From a virus: a stretch of 13,700 nt of DNA. The notes beneath the pieces were generated by a model that ran no database searches, was not told the origin of the DNA, and was given only the letters and a program-made list of their open reading frames with translations. The stretch lies in the UHGV virus genome UHGV-1812412, one strand, 5' to 3'. Below, piece after piece: positions 3,011-11,028 of the stretch. Both the position numbers and the translations under genes were made by a program. Every line of letters starts with the position of its first letter. Position 1 is the first letter of the stretch.

Positions 3011-4054
3011 TTATTTAGCCTTGGCTTTTGCCAGAGCAGCGGCGGCGGAGTTACTAACACTCACTTTAACCACAACCTCAGGCATCATGTTCATGAAAGC
3101 ATAAGAGGATTCAATGAAGATTTCTCGTTTACCTCTGGACTCTTCCATATACATGAAAGCTTCACGTGCAGCGCCGTTTGCAAGCTTCAGGTTGCGAGCG
3201 CAAGGGCCGAAAAATTGAGTATAAACGCCCACCATATCGCCTAACGCATGTGGCTGGAATTGTGGGACCAGATAAGCAGTATTCTCTGGCAGACTATCCA
3301 TTTGCACCACACGCAGAGCTAAGCCCGGAATGCGGAAGGTCGGGAAGCCCGGCAGAATATCCTCAGGGAACATCAGACCTTTATCGGTAATATTCTGATT
3401 GCCGAACAACAGCACTTTACGGAGCAGTTCATCAGTCTGAATAGCGGCGAACACCTCAGCACGGCAGAACAGGGTGAAACCACGCAGAGCGCGAACGACA
3501 CCACGCTGTTTAACCTTGCTCAGTGCAACCAGGTCCTGCAGTTGTTTGAGAATATCTTGAGCTAGATCCATTTCAGAGGTGGACTGTTCCACGCCCAGCA
3601 GTTCGCACACATTCAGCTCTTTACCCTTGGTGAGGATAATTTTGTTCTCAAAGAGAGCAAGCTGGCGTGCTTCTTCGTGGGTCTGGCGTAAGCCTTCGCC
3701 CAGTTGAATAACACGACGAGCGGTTACAGACTCTAAATTCTCTTCGGAATCTTTGCCCGGAACACGGATACCTTGCCAGTCAGAAGGATAAATAGCACTT
3801 GATGCGGCAGTGAATGCCATATCACCCGTGCCCGTTTCACGCTCATCTGCGGTAATGGTCGCCATCTGTTCACCGTAGCGCGGATACTGACCGAAAGCGG
3901 TTTGTTTCACCTGGCGAACTTTGTCATATTCAAATTTAAAGGTATTGCACAGAGCAGTAGTGTTGAAGATATCCATTGCTGAAATAATCTGGTTATCCAG
4001 CGGGATGTCTTTAATCAAGCCACACAGATCGCGGACTTCGAATTCTTTTTTCAT
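3011..4054 (-). CDS. Putative phage major capsid protein (lambda gpE-like), 347 aa
   Basis: Long ORF; ATG at 4054 with GGAGG 6 nt upstream (ORF track begins at a TTG at 4060). N-terminal MDIFNTTALCNTFKFEYD and C-terminal IESSYAFMNMMPEVVVKVSV resemble lambda gpE (TTAQLL...KFKFD; MIQSAPLMLLADPDEFVSV) as recalled from memory, not search-verified. Followed by a strong terminator, as expected for a highly expressed capsid gene. Confidence 0.55.
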   Translation of the reverse strand: MKKEFEVRDLCGLIKDIPLDNQIISAMDIFNTTALCNTFKFEYDKVRQVKQTAFGQYPRYGEQMATITADERETGTGDMAFTAASSAIYPSDWQGIRVPGKDSEENLESVTARRVIQLGEGLRQTHEEARQLALFENKIILTKGKELNVCELLGVEQSTSEMDLAQDILKQLQDLVALSKVKQRGVVRALRGFTLFCRAEVFAAIQTDELLRKVLLFGNQNITDKGLMFPEDILPGFPTFRIPGLALRVVQMDSLPENTAYLVPQFQPHALGDMVGVYTQFFGPCARNLKLANGAAREAFMYMEESRGKREIFIESSYAFMNMMPEVVVKVSVSNSAAAALAKAKAK

Positions 4055-4065
4055 CTCCAACCTCC

Positions 4066-4401: not shown

Positions 4402-5215
4402 TTGATCACCTGCGATTTAAATTAACTCCCCTCAAAGAGTTCCGGTATAACCTCTCAAACCACGACGCTCGGGCCGAAAAGTTATGCCGGAAATCTAAAG
4501 GGAAATTGATACAAGGAGAGGGAGATAGCCCCGCACCGTCCAAGCGGGGGCTATTCCATATGGGGAAAACCAACAACAGTTGGCTGATAGTTCACAGTAT
4601 GGGTTACTAGAGAGCACTATCACGAAAGACACTCCCCCGAATCAGTTCAGGCTGCGGTCACATCAGCGGGGAAATACCTTTCGGGATAGCTACCCACACA
4701 GAAAACCCGCAAAAGAAAACTGTGTGGATAACTAGCCCAATAGGAGAATTAATCGACCACTCAACGATGATCAGGGTAGTGTTATTTATAAGGCGGCACC
4801 GCTACCTGGTCGCCTTTACTTTGGAGGAAAATACGGCAAATCAAGATCTTCTCACAATGATATTGACGCCATACTGTATATTATATCAGTATTTACTCAC
4901 ATTGTCAACACCCTGATTATATAAATTCTAATAATTAGCGTAGTAACGGTATTTTCAGACCTCTATCAATCCCATCAATACGTCACCCCACCCTTTAGAT
5001 GCATACATCCGACCTACTTTGTAGGCTTGGCGTACTGCCAAGGTCGCAGCTATGCGACTCCTATCTATCACCACTTTATAAAGCTTGATAGATATCCGTT
5101 GATCAATATCAATGTTTTCCGGGGATTTACCCGGCTATAGTTCGAATCAAGGAAGGGGAGCATTGATAGCACCCAACCGAGCAAACAAATCAACTTCTCG
5201 CAAAAGGTTATAGAT

Positions 5216-5677: not shown

Positions 5678-5769
5678 TGTGAACAGTCCAATAGGTTAAG
5701 CTCTGGCTCATAGCCCTCGCCTCGAGGGTGTTATTAACTAAATTCAACTTCTCGCAAAGGGGTACCATT

Positions 5770-6291
5770 ATGTTATTTCAGAAAGATAAAGAATCAGAAA
5801 ACAAAAAGCTTTTTAAAGCAATAGTAAAAATGTTCTTTCAGTACACTGCAGCGTTTTTGATAGCCGGGCCTTGGTTAATGGCTATCTGTTTTTACCCTGC
5901 TACCTTGTTTATTGGCAGTAGCAAGTTCGGCGATGGCCCGTTTCATGTGGATATTGGTTTTATAGATTCTCTCCTGATCCGTCCTATAAATGCTGTTCTC
6001 AATGCTTTCTACTTCCCCACTAGTCTAGAGGGGTGGTCGGTAACCTGGGGTGTTTTAGGCTTAGCATATGTATATTGGTTGGTTGGCTTTTTGTGGGGTG
6101 CAATCTGTGCTCTCCTCGATATTGATACAGGATCAAGCCGTAGGAGTGGTGGTAATAATAGCGGAGCGGGTGTATATGCACACGTAGGTACCAGAGGGGT
6201 AAGTATCACCGCAGGTACCCGATTCGCTGGCGGCTGGCTGAGCATAGGCAAACGCGGCGTTAGTTGGAGAAAAAGCAAAAAACTGTTCTGA
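5770..6291 (+). CDS. Membrane protein, 173 aa from ATG 5770, with at least two hydrophobic helices and a Gly-rich basic tail containing a repeated G-x-R-G-V-S motif
   Basis: ORF track starts at a GTG at 5728; the ATG at 5770 has AAGGGG 7 nt upstream. Hydrophobic helices FFQYTAAFLIAGPWLMAICFYPATLFI and WGVLGLAYVYWLVGFLWGAICALL; tail has GTRGVS and GKRGVS. Terminator directly downstream. Confidence 0.6.
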   Translation: MLFQKDKESENKKLFKAIVKMFFQYTAAFLIAGPWLMAICFYPATLFIGSSKFGDGPFHVDIGFIDSLLIRPINAVLNAFYFPTSLEGWSVTWGVLGLAYVYWLVGFLWGAICALLDIDTGSSRRSGGNNSGAGVYAHVGTRGVSITAGTRFAGGWLSIGKRGVSWRKSKKLF

Positions 6292-6298
6292 CCTACCA

Positions 6299-6322
6299 GG
6301 GGGGCCATCACGGCCCCTTTTT
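6299..6322 (+). terminator. Rho-independent terminator after the membrane protein gene
   Basis: GGGGCC (6301-6306) / GGCCCC (6312-6317) stem with 5-nt loop, followed by TTTTT (6318-6322). Confidence 0.7.
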
Positions 6323-7636
6323 ATTTATCCCTCAATTAACCCCTATTTATCCCCTATTTAATGCCTATTTATTGATTTAATCCGTTTTATGCCACAACCG
6401 CCCGGTTGACAGAGTAAGAGAGAGGGTGTAACCCTTTTTCGTAATACCAATAAAATCAATAGCTTAGCTCAATTGGCCTTTTCTCTGTTTTTGTCAAATT
6501 TAACATACCCTCAAAAACTGCAAAATCTGGCTGCAAGATTATCTGCAGCTGGATTTCTTACACCTCAATTTGTGGTATCACCCTGACTAGTTTGTGCATA
6601 AAATGAACAGTTTTTAACATTTCCTCCTCACCTGGTAACCACACAAAAAGCTAAAAACGAGGCACAGATAATCTTAGAGGCCTGTTTTCTTGTTATCACT
6701 CTGGGAACGTCGTAGAAGTGATTTTGATGAAAGACGGCCTACCCTATTACACCCCCATTTTTTGTTATCACAATTGCATCCTGTGCGGTATATGACTATG
6801 TGCTGAAAGCGGTCTCAGGTGTTGGTGTCAGAAATATCCATTAGCGGTATTTGAGCTTATGGGTAACTCGTCTGAGGTGCCAGGCAGGCGCTCCCCTACC
6901 TCCCCTTTTTCTTCTAACAATTCTCAAATATCACACCACTGCCCACCACGTTGCTATTATGTTAATTCTTAAGCTTTGCTGTATGTTGTGCACATTATTT
7001 ATTCAGATGCATGTACGTAAATTCTGTGCCCACTGATCATGATTTTTAAATCAGATTTTGTAGTGCGCTTTATTAGTGTAGATAAGATCTATTATGTTAA
7101 ATGCAATTTTCCCAACCCTTCAAATCAATGACTTACATGTAAGCATGCACTAACACCCCACACAGCACATTAGACGTGTAGATGTCTATATCCCACATTT
7201 TTGATTGTTTTGTAGTCATTCCCCTGATCATTTAACCAGTATAGTTTGCTCTCTGCAGACCACAAAATCGGAATTTACATCTGATTAACATAATCTGTTA
7301 GCATGATCACCATTACCCACACAACAATAACCCCATGCAAGCCTCTTCAGGCAATTTATCGGCGTGTTGGTGTGAACAGTCTTTCATGTTCTTTATGTAT
7401 TCATGACTGCAAGGAATGTATTCATTGGCCTGTGTGGGGGAAGGATGGACTGCCTCAGGGGCCATACTTATGATGCCCGGTCAACATAGCTGTTGATAAA
7501 ATCAATGGGTGTTGATCTGCGTATTTCCCACACATGAGAGGAAATCAAAGCAAAGAGAGAGGAGAGAGGTTTGTTAGTCAAAATAGGTCAATTGACGGCT
7601 AATACAGAGTAAAAAATCAGATGCAATCACTCCCCC

Positions 7637-7819
7637 ACCTGTTGGGATTTCCCTCACCTGTATAAGAATACAGTCATACTTTCCCGTTATACGGTCATAC
7701 ACATGATGGAATAACCTGTTGGAATTTCCCACAGGTTCAACCATACATAAGCATTAACCTGTTGGAATTTCCTACTACTACCTGTCGGTATTTCCCACAG
7801 GTACCTGTTGGAATTTCCC
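7637..7819. repeat. Iteron array: five direct copies of a 17-mer ACCTGTYGGWATTTCCC
   Basis: Copies at 7637-7653, 7714-7730, 7757-7772, 7780-7796, 7803-7819; the last three are exactly 23 bp apart. Two copies are followed by the inverse ACAGGT. Partial copies of the ATTTCCCACA core at 7522-7534 and 8321-8333. Confidence 0.75.
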
Positions 7820-7911
7820 ACACTAATAGATAAAGAGAATAGATTAATAAAAAGATACCCCCCTAACCCCCCAGGGGGAATGGGGAGGGATCAGAGAGTG
7901 GGGAAGGTTTT

Positions 7912-8014
7912 CTAGATGTACGTAATTGGTACACTTAAAGGTGGATAATATGAGGCTAGATGTACGTAATTGGTACACTTAGAATATTCTAGATGTACGT
8001 AATTGGTACACTTA
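7912..8014. repeat. Three identical 26-bp direct repeats CTAGATGTACGTAATTGGTACACTTA, each with an internal dyad TGTAC-N7-GTACA
   Basis: Copies at 7912-7937, 7956-7981, 7989-8014; start-to-start spacing 44 and 33 bp (multiples of about 11, same helical face). A near DnaA box GGTGGATAA lies at 7940-7948. Confidence 0.8.
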
Positions 8015-8339
8015 AATCACATAAGTTATTGAGTTTATTAGAAAAAGTGATTCACCTATATATACTACTGATTCGCCTCCGCTCATCATTAGTATGGTGT
8101 AACTGATTCATGCTTCGCTTACGCTCACATTCATCTACTTACACCCCCTTATCTGAATTGAACATTCCCGTCCAATCCAGCTAAGAGAATTGATTGAACA
8201 TTACCTAACATCCGTTAGCTAACATTCTAATCAATTAACTACTTAATCACTTCCACACCTTCCGGTGGTGCCAAGTGTCCTGGCATGGTGGGAAAAGATT
8301 CTGCCGTTTTAGGTAGAATTGATTTCCCACAAATAGTAA

Positions 8340-8660
8340 GTGTCGGCCCTTCAATGTCACTCTCCTATGAGGGGGAGAGATGACGGGCCTCCTGTGTGGG
8401 TGAGTATCGGAGCAGTCTGTGAAGTATGAGCAGGCTGTGAGATACGCTACTGTATATCTGCGTAGAACAGCCTCCGCTGTTTACGCTCTTTGTGTGGGTC
8501 CGGCGAATGCGACAGCATGAGGCCCACATGTGGACCGCTGCCGAAAGCTTGCCAGCGCCGGAAGGAGGCGGCAAAGAGTCTCCCGCGCGGTTGTAGGTCC
8601 GCGCCGGACTTTAACTTACAGTTAAACCCTTCGGGCTTGTGCGGGTGCACGCACACATAT
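8340..8660. other. GC-rich, hairpin-dense non-coding island, candidate structured RNA or DNA processing site
   Basis: Sharp rise in GC relative to AT-rich flanks. Local stems include TCTCC/GGAGA (8361-8379), GCGCGG/CCGCGC (8585-8604), TTTAAC/GTTAAA (8609-8625) and GTGCG/CGCAC (8639-8654). The only ORFs are two overlapping Arg/Pro/Ser-rich minus-strand frames without RBS. Confidence 0.3.
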
Positions 8661-8843
8661 ATATAAAGGATACACTCATAAATCGAAAATAAGCGCGATT
8701 TTAGCGCCTACAGCGAGATAAACTATACTCCCTAGTGTAATTGCATTACCTGATGCTTAAATCGCGTTGTAGGGCCTCTCATGAGGTTTGAGTTTAACAC
8801 CCTCCAAAGTTTTAACAAAAAGTGCTCTCCCTCCATTGTGGGC

Positions 8844-9013
8844 CATTGACAATCTTATTGCATAAATGCTATAAGTTATTCTGATTTTGACACGGTAGGG
8901 GCCATTAATAATGCTTACCCCTTTGCTGTGGACTTGCTTGTGTCTGCTGTGCAGGCTATGGCACCTATAGCTCGCCTAAATGATAATGATTCCTATTGAC
9001 AATTGGTTGTCAA
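8844..9013 (+). promoter_or_regulatory. Operator-like 9-bp palindromes ATTGACAAT overlapping -35-like TTGACA hexamers; candidate tandem promoters
   Basis: ATTGACAAT at 8844-8852 and 8995-9003; the second is part of an 18-bp dyad TTGACAA-TTGG-TTGTCAA (8996-9013). Possible promoters: TTGACA 8846-8851 + 18 nt + TATAAG 8870-8875; TTGACA 8996-9001 + 17 nt + TAAGAT 9019-9024. Confidence 0.4.
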
Positions 9014-9059
9014 TATGATAAGATTATAGATAGTGGGAGAAACAGATCCGGAGGTCAAC

Positions 9060-9209
9060 GTGGAACTGAGCGACGCTATAGCGATCATCAACCTGGCTGT
9101 ACTGTGGTGCGGTGTTGCCTACATAGCCGGAGTAACTGCAATCGACAACCTTGAAGAAAAAATGATAGATAAATACAAAAAGATTGTTGACAATCTCGCA
9201 AATAGCTGA
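9060..9209 (+). CDS. Small hydrophobic protein, 49 aa, GTG start
   Basis: GGAGG at 9050-9054, 5 nt before the GTG at 9060; product MELSDAIAIINLAVLWCGVAYIAGVTAIDNLEEKMIDKYKKIVDNLANS has one predicted transmembrane helix. Not in the supplied ORF track (below the length cutoff). Confidence 0.35.
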   Translation: MELSDAIAIINLAVLWCGVAYIAGVTAIDNLEEKMIDKYKKIVDNLANS

Positions 9210-9215
9210 TAAAAT
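9182..9215 (+). promoter_or_regulatory. Sigma70-type promoter with an operator dyad over the -35
   Basis: -35 TTGACA (9187-9192), 17-nt spacer, -10 TAAAAT (9210-9215); dyad GATTGT-TG-ACAATC (9182-9195) overlaps the -35 and shares the TTGACAAT core with the upstream palindromes. Confidence 0.5.
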
Positions 9216-9263
9216 ATAAATCATAGGGTAATTCTCAGCATGTGAATTTTCCTTAAACAGACT

Positions 9264-9295
9264 AGCGGGGCTTGTCTTGAGTCCCGTTTCTTTTT
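9264..9295 (+). terminator. Promoter-proximal hairpin plus U-tract (attenuator or 3' end of a short RNA)
   Basis: CGGGGC (9266-9271) pairs with GTCCCG (9281-9286), with one G-U pair, around a 9-nt loop, followed by TTTCTTTTT (9287-9295). Sits about 50 nt after the predicted start site and 44 nt before the next ATG. Confidence 0.5.
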
Positions 9296-9338
9296 AAACC
9301 TACATCGCACAGGCGGTGAGCCAACAGGAGATTGAATC

Positions 9339-9548
9339 ATGGCTAAAACTGGACCGATCAGCCAGCTGGTAGACTGGACTACTGACGAAATCGTCGAGAA
9401 CGTGCTTAAAGGTAACTTTCGAAAAACTTCTGTTTATGCATTTATTCGAAAACACAAAGGAGAATATCCACACATTGAAGCGGCAATAGAAAAACTTAAC
9501 TTTATTAAACTTGAGCGCCAGCTGGAAAGATATAAACACCTACTTTGA
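9339..9548 (+). CDS. Small protein, 69 aa, possibly DNA-binding
   Basis: AGGAG at 9326-9330, 8 nt before the ATG; first gene after the promoter/attenuator. No family recognised. Confidence 0.6.
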   Translation: MAKTGPISQLVDWTTDEIVENVLKGNFRKTSVYAFIRKHKGEYPHIEAAIEKLNFIKLERQLERYKHLL

Positions 9549-9584: not shown

Positions 9585-10454
9585 ATGAATATTAAGTCTG
9601 TTTTTAATATAACTTTAAATGATGATCCTAGTATCCTTTTGCTGCCTATGCTCATAAACAAATCTGGACTATTAAAAAAAGGCGACGCAAGGGATATTTA
9701 TATTTATATGTGGAATATTTACTATCTCAACGCTAAAAAAGAGGCCGCCAAGGTGTTCAGTAAGAAGACTAAAGGAAGAAGCCTCAGTCAGGATATGAAA
9801 GATTCCATAAGAAAAGAATGTTTTGCAATTAATGATAAAGATTCCTGTGTGGAAATCTCTTATAAGGATATAGAGGAAAGAGTAGGAATATTACGACCAC
9901 ACGCAGTAAGGGCAATTAAAAAGCTGGAATCTGAAGGAATTATCACCTGCCTTAAAAAAGGCAATAAGCATAACCCTTATGCATCATGGCAAATTAATGT
10001 CGGAATCTTTGAAATGATGGAAAGAGTAGGGATTGAAAACCTCATTGGGTGGGATCTCTTAAAACCATATTGGAAGAAAGAACAGGAAGCAGCCGGAAGA
10101 GGGGAGGGGGATAAAGCCCCGCAAGAAGCCCCAAAACAGGCCGCACAGCAAGCTAAAAAGGCCGAGGTGGTGCAGTTCCCTTCTACGAAAGATAAGAGCG
10201 TCAGAATCGAGCGTAGCTCTCATCCTGAAAGTGTGACAACGTCACCTGTTAAGACAAACAATGAAGGGCCAGTGAAAGAGATACCCAAAATTATAGACAT
10301 TTCTTCTTTTATGGCAGATGAGGAAGATATGCAAGATGAGTGGTGGACACCTCCAGAAAATAATGATTATGGTTATGATCCTTATGGCTATGATGAAGAT
10401 GAATATAGCCCGTTTGAAGATGAATATATAAATGATTCCGCTATCCCTTATTAA
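9585..10454 (+). CDS. Winged-helix DNA-binding protein, 289 aa, with a Lys/Ala/Gln-rich linker and an acidic, aromatic C-terminal tail; candidate replication initiator or regulator
   Basis: AAGAGGT 7 nt before the ATG. Segment ISYKDIEERVGILRPHAVRAIKKLESEGIITC has the classic winged-helix pattern seen in replication initiators and MarR-like regulators; C-terminus DEEDMQDEWWTPPENNDYGYDPYGYDEDEYSPFEDEY. Function inferred. Confidence 0.75.
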   Translation: MNIKSVFNITLNDDPSILLLPMLINKSGLLKKGDARDIYIYMWNIYYLNAKKEAAKVFSKKTKGRSLSQDMKDSIRKECFAINDKDSCVEISYKDIEERVGILRPHAVRAIKKLESEGIITCLKKGNKHNPYASWQINVGIFEMMERVGIENLIGWDLLKPYWKKEQEAAGRGEGDKAPQEAPKQAAQQAKKAEVVQFPSTKDKSVRIERSSHPESVTTSPVKTNNEGPVKEIPKIIDISSFMADEEDMQDEWWTPPENNDYGYDPYGYDEDEYSPFEDEYINDSAIPY

Positions 10455-10542
10455 TACCCCCAAATAAACTAAATAAACTAAACATAGAATTACTAGAACT
10501 AGATTGATTGCCCTGATCTTTTAAACGTTCGGAGAATTAATC

Positions 10543-11028
10543 ATGTTCAAATCTGATCTTTCTGATTCCCAATTTGAAAAACTGGTAGCACTGCAGAAAT
10601 ATCTCCCCAGTGATGATCAACCAACACGACAGGCCAAACACTTATTAGTCGAGGGCTTTACCCCTGAATTCGTAGCGGAATATACAGGCGTTAAACTTGA
10701 GAAAGTCCAAAAACTATATAATGAGTCCTGGAATCCACGGTGTCGAGTTCCCCTCAGTGTCTATAACGAAATAGATAGAGATAAAAATGTCTTCGAAGAT
10801 CGCCGCCGCAAATCTCTTTTAATGTGGAATTGCGGGATGAATATTGAAGAGATAGCAAAAGAATTAAAAGTAACCTGCTTTCATATTTGGGGCTTGTTGA
10901 GTGAAATCCTGCCACGTAAGGAGCTTAATCAACGTTTGCCTAAGCCCGGTAGTCGTGCTTATCGCGAATTTATATTCATCTACCGCCGCCATAGCAATAA
11001 AGTCCGGAAAGCAATGCAGCGCAAATAG
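10543..11028 (+). CDS. Hypothetical protein, 161 aa, with two HTH-like segments and a basic C-terminus
   Basis: GGAGA 7 nt before the ATG; HTH-like segments FTPEFVAEYTGVKLEKVQKLY and MNIEEIAKELKVTCFHIWGLL. Could be a small terminase subunit-like or regulatory protein; not resolved. Confidence 0.7.
   Translation: MFKSDLSDSQFEKLVALQKYLPSDDQPTRQAKHLLVEGFTPEFVAEYTGVKLEKVQKLYNESWNPRCRVPLSVYNEIDRDKNVFEDRRRKSLLMWNCGMNIEEIAKELKVTCFHIWGLLSEILPRKELNQRLPKPGSRAYREFIFIYRRHSNKVRKAMQRK

Follow-up and report, generated by a model that had tools for sequence, protein, structure and literature searches.

The window analysed here, a DNA stretch of 13,700 nucleotides (nt) entered as the viral genome UHGV-1812412, is in its entirety a complete circular Escherichia coli plasmid. 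Its gene at 9585–10454 encodes a protein of 289 amino acids (aa), which we call Type A, and we propose, with a probability of roughly 0.55–0.6, that the plasmid family has two interchangeable replication modules and that this protein is what binds, sequence-specifically, the origin of one of them; its role as initiator is inferred. The predicted DNA-recognition helix of Type A varies between plasmids together with an array of palindromic repeats (dyads) upstream of the gene, and the gene occupies a slot that in sister plasmids is held by a second winged-helix protein, Type B, which, judged by its sequence, behaves like a classical iteron-binding replication protein (Rep). Because the dyads track Type A, the iterons track Type B and the two genes share a slot, Type A can be regarded as an alternative replication module. 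An initial annotation of this DNA had placed the gene at these coordinates, which are correct, and had named it the best initiator candidate in the window, a view that is upheld by its profile matches, by its Type B slot-mate and by the predictive match between helix and array.

The putative binding array contains three 30-bp repeats, each with a 17-bp dyad TGTAC-N7-GTACA (TGTACGTAATTGGTACA; starting at 7917, 7961 and 7994) inside a 25-bp imperfect palindrome. In all classes the dyads are spaced 44 (or 43) and 33 bp from start to start, which puts them on roughly the same face of the helix. Across related plasmids and contigs (given here as L numbers), the recognition helix pairs with the dyad as follows: LRPHAVRAIKK with TGTAC-N7-GTACA, LRPNAVRAIKK with TGTATCAATTWATACA, LQPNIARAIKK with ATATCA-N3-TGATAT and ARTDALKAIKK with TGTGC-N7-GCACA. 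Helix class and dyad class agree in 12/12 Type A plasmids. The pattern was seen in nine plasmids; for L025, L026 and L027 the array was then predicted from the protein, ahead of reading the DNA, and correctly in each case. The dyad array occurs only in Type A plasmids and is absent from each of the 16 plasmids with a full-length Type B in the slot. Block linkage does not account for the match, since the backbone between array and gene is 88–100% identical across classes over long stretches, and what divergence there is falls mainly on the dyads (only 32–59% identical) and the winged-helix codons 9797–9996. The recognition helix itself is the part of the protein that varies among the specificity classes. 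From these comparisons we strongly infer that Type A specifically binds 7910–8016.

A second set of repeats, five 23-bp iterons (ACCTGTTGGAATTTCCCACAGGT, 'type I'), also lies upstream of the gene and was considered as a set of Type A sites, but was rejected: these iterons are identical in plasmids carrying Type A and Type B (the window, L001 and L006 share one sequence; L002 and L007 share another) and they differ within one Type A class (L019 versus L022). They fall into six sequence types, which match the allele of the Type B N-terminal domain in 16/16 Type B plasmids; the Type B C-terminal domain is mosaic and is shuffled independently of the N-domain allele. Simple linkage is also contradicted by the way the two kinds of array are combined: L019 and L022 agree in Type A class and dyads but not in 23-bp iterons, and the window and L022 agree in 23-bp iterons but not in Type A class and dyads. 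The array of 23-bp iterons keeps 3–5 copies in all of the Type B plasmids and is down to one or two copies in 4/8 Type A plasmids counted (two in L020 and L021, one in L023 and L024). The iterons of the window are thus apparently orphans, as they would follow Type B, which the window plasmid lacks. The initial annotation had tied the protein to iterons upstream; it does have candidate cognate repeats there with a 17-bp core, namely the three 30-bp dyad repeats, and it is only the 23-bp iterons that belong with the other protein. The tail of Type A recombines separately, being 100% identical in the window and in the class-2 plasmids L020 and L021.

The slot was compared in 27 related plasmids. 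It lies between the 69-aa gene upstream and a 161-aa gene (10543–11028) and is hypervariable, with flanking genes that are 70–100% identical. Its occupant is either Type A or Type B (winged-helix proteins of 288–306 aa; for example WP_159382609, L001 7261–8181), and exactly one full-length A or B was present in 24/24 plasmids checked. Type B scores 30.9 bits against Pfam HTH_36 (PF13730; gathering score 25), which Type A does not match. In PHROG, Type B matches phrog_270 ('replication initiation protein', 7e-11), phrog_186 ('DnaD-like helicase loader', 5e-9) and others, and its matches to phage replication-initiation families are much stronger than those of Type A. The winged helices of the two types are 32% identical (pairwise E of 7e-13; hhalign probability 72%, E of 3e-5 over 69 columns), and the linker sequence PQEAPKQAxQQ is nearly identical in both; at the DNA level, the linker patch 10118–10181 (PQEAPKQAAQQAKKAEVVQ) is 92% identical over 64 nt to the linker of the Type B gene. 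The two types thus have in common the slot, the winged helix-turn-helix (HTH), the linker and an associated acidic peptide ending in IPY. They differ in the N-terminal 80 aa, in their cognate sites (23-bp iterons for Type B, 30-bp dyads for Type A) and in the C-terminal part, since Type B has a folded C-terminal domain of 130 aa and a separate 48-aa acidic open reading frame (ORF), whereas Type A lacks the C-terminal domain and carries the acidic peptide as a fusion. Both types are known only from one Escherichia/Shigella element family. The stretch 9647–10800 of L028 holds a Type B homologue (38% identity) and, 57 nt downstream of that gene, six iterons at 22-bp spacing.

Copies reduced to the N-terminal domain also occur. 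The Type A N-domain alone is a stand-alone protein of 164–172 aa in sister plasmids (P0045–P0050; L004 10001–10501), and such a short A of 166 aa is found upstream of a full-length Type B in L004 (10001–10501) and L009 (1884–2384); neither plasmid has cognate dyads of its own. Similarly, a short B of 121 aa precedes a full-length Type B in L001 (6882–7247) and L010 (6489–6854), with a recognition helix unlike that of any of the six full-length Type B iteron classes. Such copies may block the origins of competing plasmids.

The Type A gene starts with ATG, with a ribosome-binding site AAGAGG 9 nt upstream. The N-terminal domain has a net charge of +9. In searches with Pfam, MarR and HTH_CodY match aa 91–128 with E of about 1e-3, below their gathering scores (for MarR, PF01047, 17.5 bits versus a cutoff of 24.6), and a sequence-profile search of the PDB gave a MarR-family regulator with an E of 0.05 and an alignment that runs through the wing. 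The winged helix of the initial annotation is thus weakly supported by these sub-threshold matches, but the AlphaFold models are poor outside two helices, aa 93–100 and 104–116, which have fair confidence (pLDDT of 77–83) in the N-domain model. Only one HTH region was detected by Pfam, PDB profile and AlphaFold, with no sign of two tandem winged-helix domains. In PHROG the Type A matches, although weak, are all three to replication initiators: phrog_391 (3e-5) and phrog_678 (4e-5), both 'replication initiation O-like', and phrog_428; these families are matched by 13–14 of the 18 Type A family members. A word-indexed search found 50 close homologues, all on E. coli contigs of 13–14 kb, and an exhaustive HMMER search with the N-domain profile against 1.84 billion representative proteins returned its own family only. 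In IMG/VR neither Type A nor the capsid protein of the plasmid had a relative, a phage collection gave no DNA or protein match to Type A, PADLOC reported nothing for it and Rfam had no match anywhere in the window. By sequence, then, Type A is an orphan family.

The C-terminal tail has 18 Asp/Glu residues, no Lys or Arg and 11 aromatic residues, in agreement with its earlier description as acidic and aromatic. The likeness to the C-termini of SSB that had also been suggested holds as a resemblance, as NDSAIPY-COOH ends 44/44 full-length Type A relatives and SSB ends in DDDIPF. An acidic/aromatic peptide lies just upstream of the 161-aa gene in every plasmid examined and takes four forms. In Type A it is the fused tail (ending NDSAIPY); most Type B plasmids have it as a separate ORF of 48 aa (ending ENDSDIPY); L013 has a variant (ending ERDSCIPY), and L004 and L009 have an ORF of 53–54 aa (ending DEDY). 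Over 10418–10560, which takes in the final 37 nt of the Type A gene and the DNA that follows, identity to the 3' end of the 48-aa ORF and its downstream sequence is 81.5%. In SSB the motif is a set of acidic residues and then Ile/Leu-Pro-Phe as the free C-terminal end (PMC5872125); DnaG docks on the tip DDDIPF, as do many other proteins of replication and repair (PMC5872125, PMC10164576). According to work referenced in PMC12339929, the C-terminal aromatic residue of T7 gp2.5 is essential. The acidic tails of T7 gp2.5 and SSB regulate both their own DNA binding and their contacts with partners (PMC10359462, PMC12339929).

On the proposed reading, the N-terminal winged helix would bind the three 25–30-bp palindromic repeats, probably as dimers, as the comparative data strongly suggest. 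The resulting complex, beside the 59-bp A+T-rich stretch that is a candidate unwinding element, would start replication there in place of Type B and the 23-bp iterons. Since Type A itself lacks an enzymatic domain and no recognizable helicase, primase or loader is encoded on the plasmid, we propose the tail as a device for docking host proteins. Presented by the flexible linker, the tip DSAIPY-COOH may imitate the SSB tip and may dock host SSB-client proteins at the origin, such as PriA, DnaG primase or the chi subunit of DNA polymerase III. That the tail recruits such proteins is our hypothesis. The fusion of the peptide to Type A would explain why the protein lacks a Type B C-terminal domain: in Type B plasmids this domain would serve as the docking partner of the free acidic peptide, which a fused peptide would not need. 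No other Rep candidate was found among the plasmid proteins; the variable 173/187-aa protein was considered as a rival Rep and rejected, being a multi-pass membrane protein with no family match.

Several observations weigh against this reading. The homology of Type A to initiators is remote (PHROG E of about 3e-5): in Pfam it has no match to Phage_rep_O (PF04492) at E ≤ 0.01, nor to Rep_3 (PF01051), and the PDB profiles and NCBIfam returned generic winged-helix regulators only. The AlphaFold models have low confidence (pLDDT of 40 for the full length with 18 sequences and 55 for the N-domain with 28 sequences), and a Foldseek search of the PDB gave nothing with E < 1. Intact 23-bp arrays persist without Type B in 4/8 Type A plasmids, the window included. 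The resemblance of the tail to SSB comes down to a three-residue tip and acidity, with Tyr rather than Phe as the last residue, and the peptide of the Type B plasmids, being free-standing, cannot tether anything alone. Palindromic sites with a weak promoter-like element nearby (8039–8066; 9/12 matches), inside the A+T-rich stretch, also fit an operator. Hypervariable pairs of protein and site also arise in phage immunity systems and are common as repressor and operator in temperate phages. Lastly, replication might start without a Rep, from an RNA-primed origin within the 3-kb non-coding region.

Some of these points converge on the possibility that Type A regulates transcription, as a repressor of the immunity type or as an activator, and that its dyad operators control the promoter at 8039–8066 and so the conserved non-coding region 8076–8700, with replication being RNA-primed or dependent on host factors only. 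The names given to its relatives by PGAP (MarR or Lrp/AsnC regulators), the weak MarR and CodY matches, the label of one metagenome family member (wHTH transcription repressor of Caudoviricetes), the palindromes typical of dimeric winged-helix repressors and the promoter-like site adjoining the array would all suit such a role. Yet every MarR-type match falls below its curated threshold, the best PHROG matches are replication initiators, and Type A is interchangeable with a protein that tracks classical 22–23-bp iteron arrays. The promoter-like site is itself weak, and such sites are not enriched in the region (11, versus 8.5 in shuffles). Apart from the three sites at 7917–8010, no Type A dyad was found near the operon promoters (8950–9300) or elsewhere in the window; autoregulation through such sites was thus rejected, and Type A is not a typical self-repressing MarR regulator. 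We consider regulation of this kind unlikely, at about the odds of one throw in four.

A different use of the same binding activity would be in competition or copy control, with Type A pairing or blocking origins (handcuffing, incompatibility or centromere-like clustering) and another mechanism firing the origin. The N-domain-only versions on plasmids without cognate dyads (L004 and L009) suggest that the protein acts on other plasmids in trans, many plasmids contain scattered single heterologous dyads and iterons, and the Type B profile weakly matches the centromere binder TubR in the PDB (E of 0.058). Against this, no partition ATPase or GTPase is encoded on the plasmid, the presence of one full-length A or B in all 24 plasmids fits an essential function, and the 23-bp arrays decay where Type B is absent; we hold this explanation to be improbable. 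The tail, too, may have another role. It could be a DNA-mimicking or self-inhibiting segment that folds onto the basic winged helix, or a decoy that titrates SSB-client proteins, in keeping with its charge of −18, its many aromatic residues and lack of basic ones, with the regulation of DNA binding by the gp2.5 and SSB tails (PMC10359462, PMC12339929) and with the free 48-aa and 54-aa versions, which cannot tether unless they are bound to another protein. The strict IPY-COOH tip across divergent peptides points instead to a specific pocket rather than to bulk charge; the L004 and L009 peptides, in which the tip gives way to DEDY and so is not universal, also count against this alternative. We regard it as possible, although the less favoured account of the tail.

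The 15-nt repeat that had first drawn attention to the gene, GGAAAGAGTAGG(A/G)AT, has exactly two occurrences in the whole window (14/15 positions match, 144 nt apart). It exists and encodes ERVGI twice, as had been noted; the positions given for it, 9885–9899 and 10018–10032, were off by 10 and 1. The initial annotation had taken it for a possible internal domain duplication or for in-gene sites resembling iterons, on the model of lambda O. The in-frame position, spacing and close match of the copies are what speaks for this, but 6% of codon-shuffled Type A ORFs hold a 15-nt pair with at most one mismatch and 8% hold an exact repeat of at least 12 nt. The repeat thus counts as only mildly unusual. 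Given the roughly 15 ORFs of the window, one such 15-nt pair is expected. A second pair lies in the Type A tail (10393/10414, encoding EDEY). The similarity is confined to the five residues: local alignment of the flanking protein segments stops at ERVGI with a score of 27, which is reached by 49% of shuffles of the two protein halves. The same pentapeptide occurs at both sites in only 3/44 full-length relatives, the DNA sites match at 8–12 of 15 positions in related genes, and the motif is found nowhere else on the plasmid and is unrelated to the dyads or the 23-bp iterons. E-x-x-G-I is a common pattern at the end of HTH helix 2 and its turn. Duplication or in-gene iterons are thus not borne out and are very improbable indeed, and from the sequence comparisons we conclude that the repeat is a coincidence of this lineage without a role, neither a duplication nor a binding site.

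Among known systems, the closest functional analogue of Type A is lambda O. Initiators of the lambda O type share with it a layout in which a winged-helix specificity domain at the N-terminus is joined by a flexible linker to an effector part at the C-terminus, as well as the weak matches to phrog_391 and phrog_678 (with Pfam Phage_rep_O unmatched). In both cases the sites, putative ones for Type A, are individually palindromic and arrayed beside an A+T-rich stretch, and in lambda O-type initiators, as in the Type A/Type B family, the specificity domain co-varies with the sites and the effector part recombines freely. The differences are that the origin repeats of lambda O lie inside the initiator gene, whereas the putative cognate repeats of Type A lie 1.57 kb upstream; that lambda O has the helicase loader P as its partner, whereas the Type A plasmid has no P-like loader gene; and that the lambda O effector is a folded P-binding domain, whereas that of Type A is a disordered acidic tail of 53 aa. 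Iteron Reps (RepA of pPS10 and pSC101, pi of R6K, TrfA of RK2) likewise have matched pairs of Rep and repeat specificity, and such pairs define compatibility. Their iterons are tandem direct repeats of about 17–23 bp, similar to the 22–23-bp direct iterons of the sister Type B module, whereas Type A has three spaced palindromes (at 44/33 bp) and no Rep_3 domain. Iteron-plasmid Reps rely on host DnaA, DnaB and primase, and short peptide motifs contact parts of the replisome (PMC4980987), two traits that Type A would share.

The tail shares with SSB and T7 gp2.5 a disordered acidic segment with conservation concentrated at the extreme C-terminus, and with SSB an end in Ile-Pro-aromatic-COOH. It differs in sequence (DSxIPY versus DDDIPF), in being unusually rich in Tyr and Trp and in its carrier, as the SSB tail is on an oligonucleotide-binding (OB) fold and that of Type A is on a winged helix that binds double-stranded DNA. 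MarR and Lrp regulators resemble Type A in topology (an HTH plus a wing) and in having palindromic targets; unlike them, Type A scores below the family thresholds, lacks an operator at its own promoter, ends in a long acidic and disordered segment and has a genomic role interchangeable with that of an iteron-binding protein. Staphylococcus aureus pathogenicity islands (SaPI) and phage-inducible chromosomal islands (PICI) are satellites, small phage-related elements that, much as is proposed for the window plasmid, have their own matched initiator/repeat modules in several specificities. The SaPI Rep is a helicase with a primase partner; no ATPase or primase domain was found on the window plasmid. 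Type A does not clearly belong to the O family, belongs to neither Rep_3 nor MarR and is best described as an orphan family on the theme of the origin-binding winged-helix initiator, with a tail tip like that of SSB. The gene is more interesting than the repeat that prompted its study, as it has a predictive specificity code, is swapped with a second type of initiator and has an SSB-like tip in fused and free form.

More tentatively, and with doubts that outweigh our expectation, Type A might be a minimal initiator without a folded effector that fires the dyad origin by means of an SSB-tip mimic (DSxIPY-COOH), hijacking the SSB-client machinery (for example PriA-dependent helicase loading or primase). 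The separate 48-aa mimic would then plug into Type B, and the swapping of modules and the blocking of origins by N-domain-only copies would be parts of a replication arms race within a widespread family of plasmid-borne phage satellites. If the proposals made here are correct, they would give a natural specificity code in which one His/Asn change in the helix tracks TGTAC versus TGTAT half-sites, an initiator whose sole effector is a short linear motif copied from SSB and a simple route by which a 13.7-kb element without replication enzymes captures host machinery. They would also define the replicon of a common, untyped E. coli plasmid family with capsid and tail genes; a known origin and initiator is the first step to making this family experimentally tractable and to typing it.

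Coordinates of the features discussed (window numbering; + and − denote the strand)
Feature	Position	Strand	Details
Tape measure protein	spans the window ends		gene crosses the circular junction
Dit-like baseplate protein	1683–2513	−	
Major capsid protein	3011–4060	−	phrog_29
Five 23-bp iterons, 'type I'	7637–7825		last three in tandem
84% A+T stretch	7826–7857		directly after the 23-bp iterons; conserved in the family
Putative Type A binding array, three 30-bp repeats	7910–7939, 7954–7983, 7987–8016		1.57 kb upstream of the Type A gene
A+T-rich stretch	8017–8075		59 bp; 73% A+T versus window average of 55%; adjoins the dyad array
Sigma-70-like promoter, strong	9187–9215	+	11/12 matches; TTGACA-17-TAAAAT with upstream TG
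Terminator-like hairpin	9264–9288	+	with a T-run; about 50 nt past the promoter, just before the 69-aa gene
69-aa gene	9339–9548	+	probably co-transcribed with the Type A gene
Type A gene	9585–10454	+	289 aa; winged-helix domain, linker, acidic/aromatic tail
N-terminal DNA-binding domain	9585–10079	+	aa 1–165; from alignment
15-nt repeat, copy 1	9875–9889	+	ERVGI, aa 98–102, in frame; end of HTH helix 2 and turn
Predicted recognition helix	9891–9932	+	aa 103–116, LRPHAVRAIKKLES; from MarR/CodY alignments and AF2 helix 104–116
15-nt repeat, copy 2	10019–10033	+	ERVGI, aa 146–150, in frame; helix after the wing
Low-complexity linker	10080–10292	+	aa 166–236
Acidic/aromatic tail	10293–10451	+	aa 237–289; net charge −18; IPY at 10443–10451

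The plasmid that carries the gene matches seven complete E. coli plasmids (13.3–13.7 kb) with 93–96% identity over 75–89% of its length, and three copies of it are found inside one 39.6-kb record. Its capsid protein is very divergent, with 22–25% identity to the nearest phage capsid proteins, and several small HTH proteins are also encoded. Pfam, PHROG and other profile searches of the plasmid proteins found no recognizable terminase, portal, helicase, primase or loader. The PLSDB record classes the plasmid as non-mobilizable (MOB-suite) and gives no replicon type, and among deposited phages there is no near match. Public assemblies contain the conserved 161-aa neighbour protein as an exact sequence in 187 indexed blocks, almost always on contigs of 10–20 kb, so the plasmid family is common. 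Literature searches by accession and by keywords found no description of it, and a review names 'phage-plasmid satellites' merely as a possibility for unexplained plasmids (PMC12282955). The plasmid is a candidate plasmid-borne phage satellite, apparently undescribed. A larger related element, with Dit-like and tape-measure-like genes and a Lambda_Kil match, is the 19.3-kb metagenome contig L028.

Upstream of the Type A operon, the promoter and hairpin at 9187–9297 could form a short leader, an attenuator or a small RNA. The motif ATTGACAAT is common to a further pair of promoter-like sites (at about 8845 and 8995). DnaA-box-like 9-mers (TTATCCACA, with at most one mismatch) number 14 in the plasmid versus 3.7 expected, a count reached in 0/200 shuffles; they are spread over the plasmid (for example at 4723–4731, 7491–7499 and 7940–7948) and are not clustered at the repeat arrays. 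The box at 7940–7948, between dyads 1 and 2, is not conserved in the other classes and was given no weight. The region 8320–8660 (also L001 5790–6010 and L005 4790–5020) holds a series of hairpin-forming 'cassettes' of 35–110 nt bounded by TGTGTGGG (CCCACA on the other strand), which are shuffled in order and content between plasmids and have no Rfam match.

The variable membrane-protein gene at 5728–6291 has alleles of 173, 195 and 236 aa with several hydrophobic segments and no family match. It comes after the gene of an 86-aa resolvase-type HTH protein, which is flanked by a direct repeat of about 21 nt (5187–5207 and 5741–5761, 554 nt apart) whose 15-nt core, TCAACTTCTCGCAAA, is exact. At 6322–6372, immediately past the terminator of the membrane-protein gene, is a tandem array of the 11-nt unit TATTTATCCCC in 4.6 copies, which is kept in relatives.

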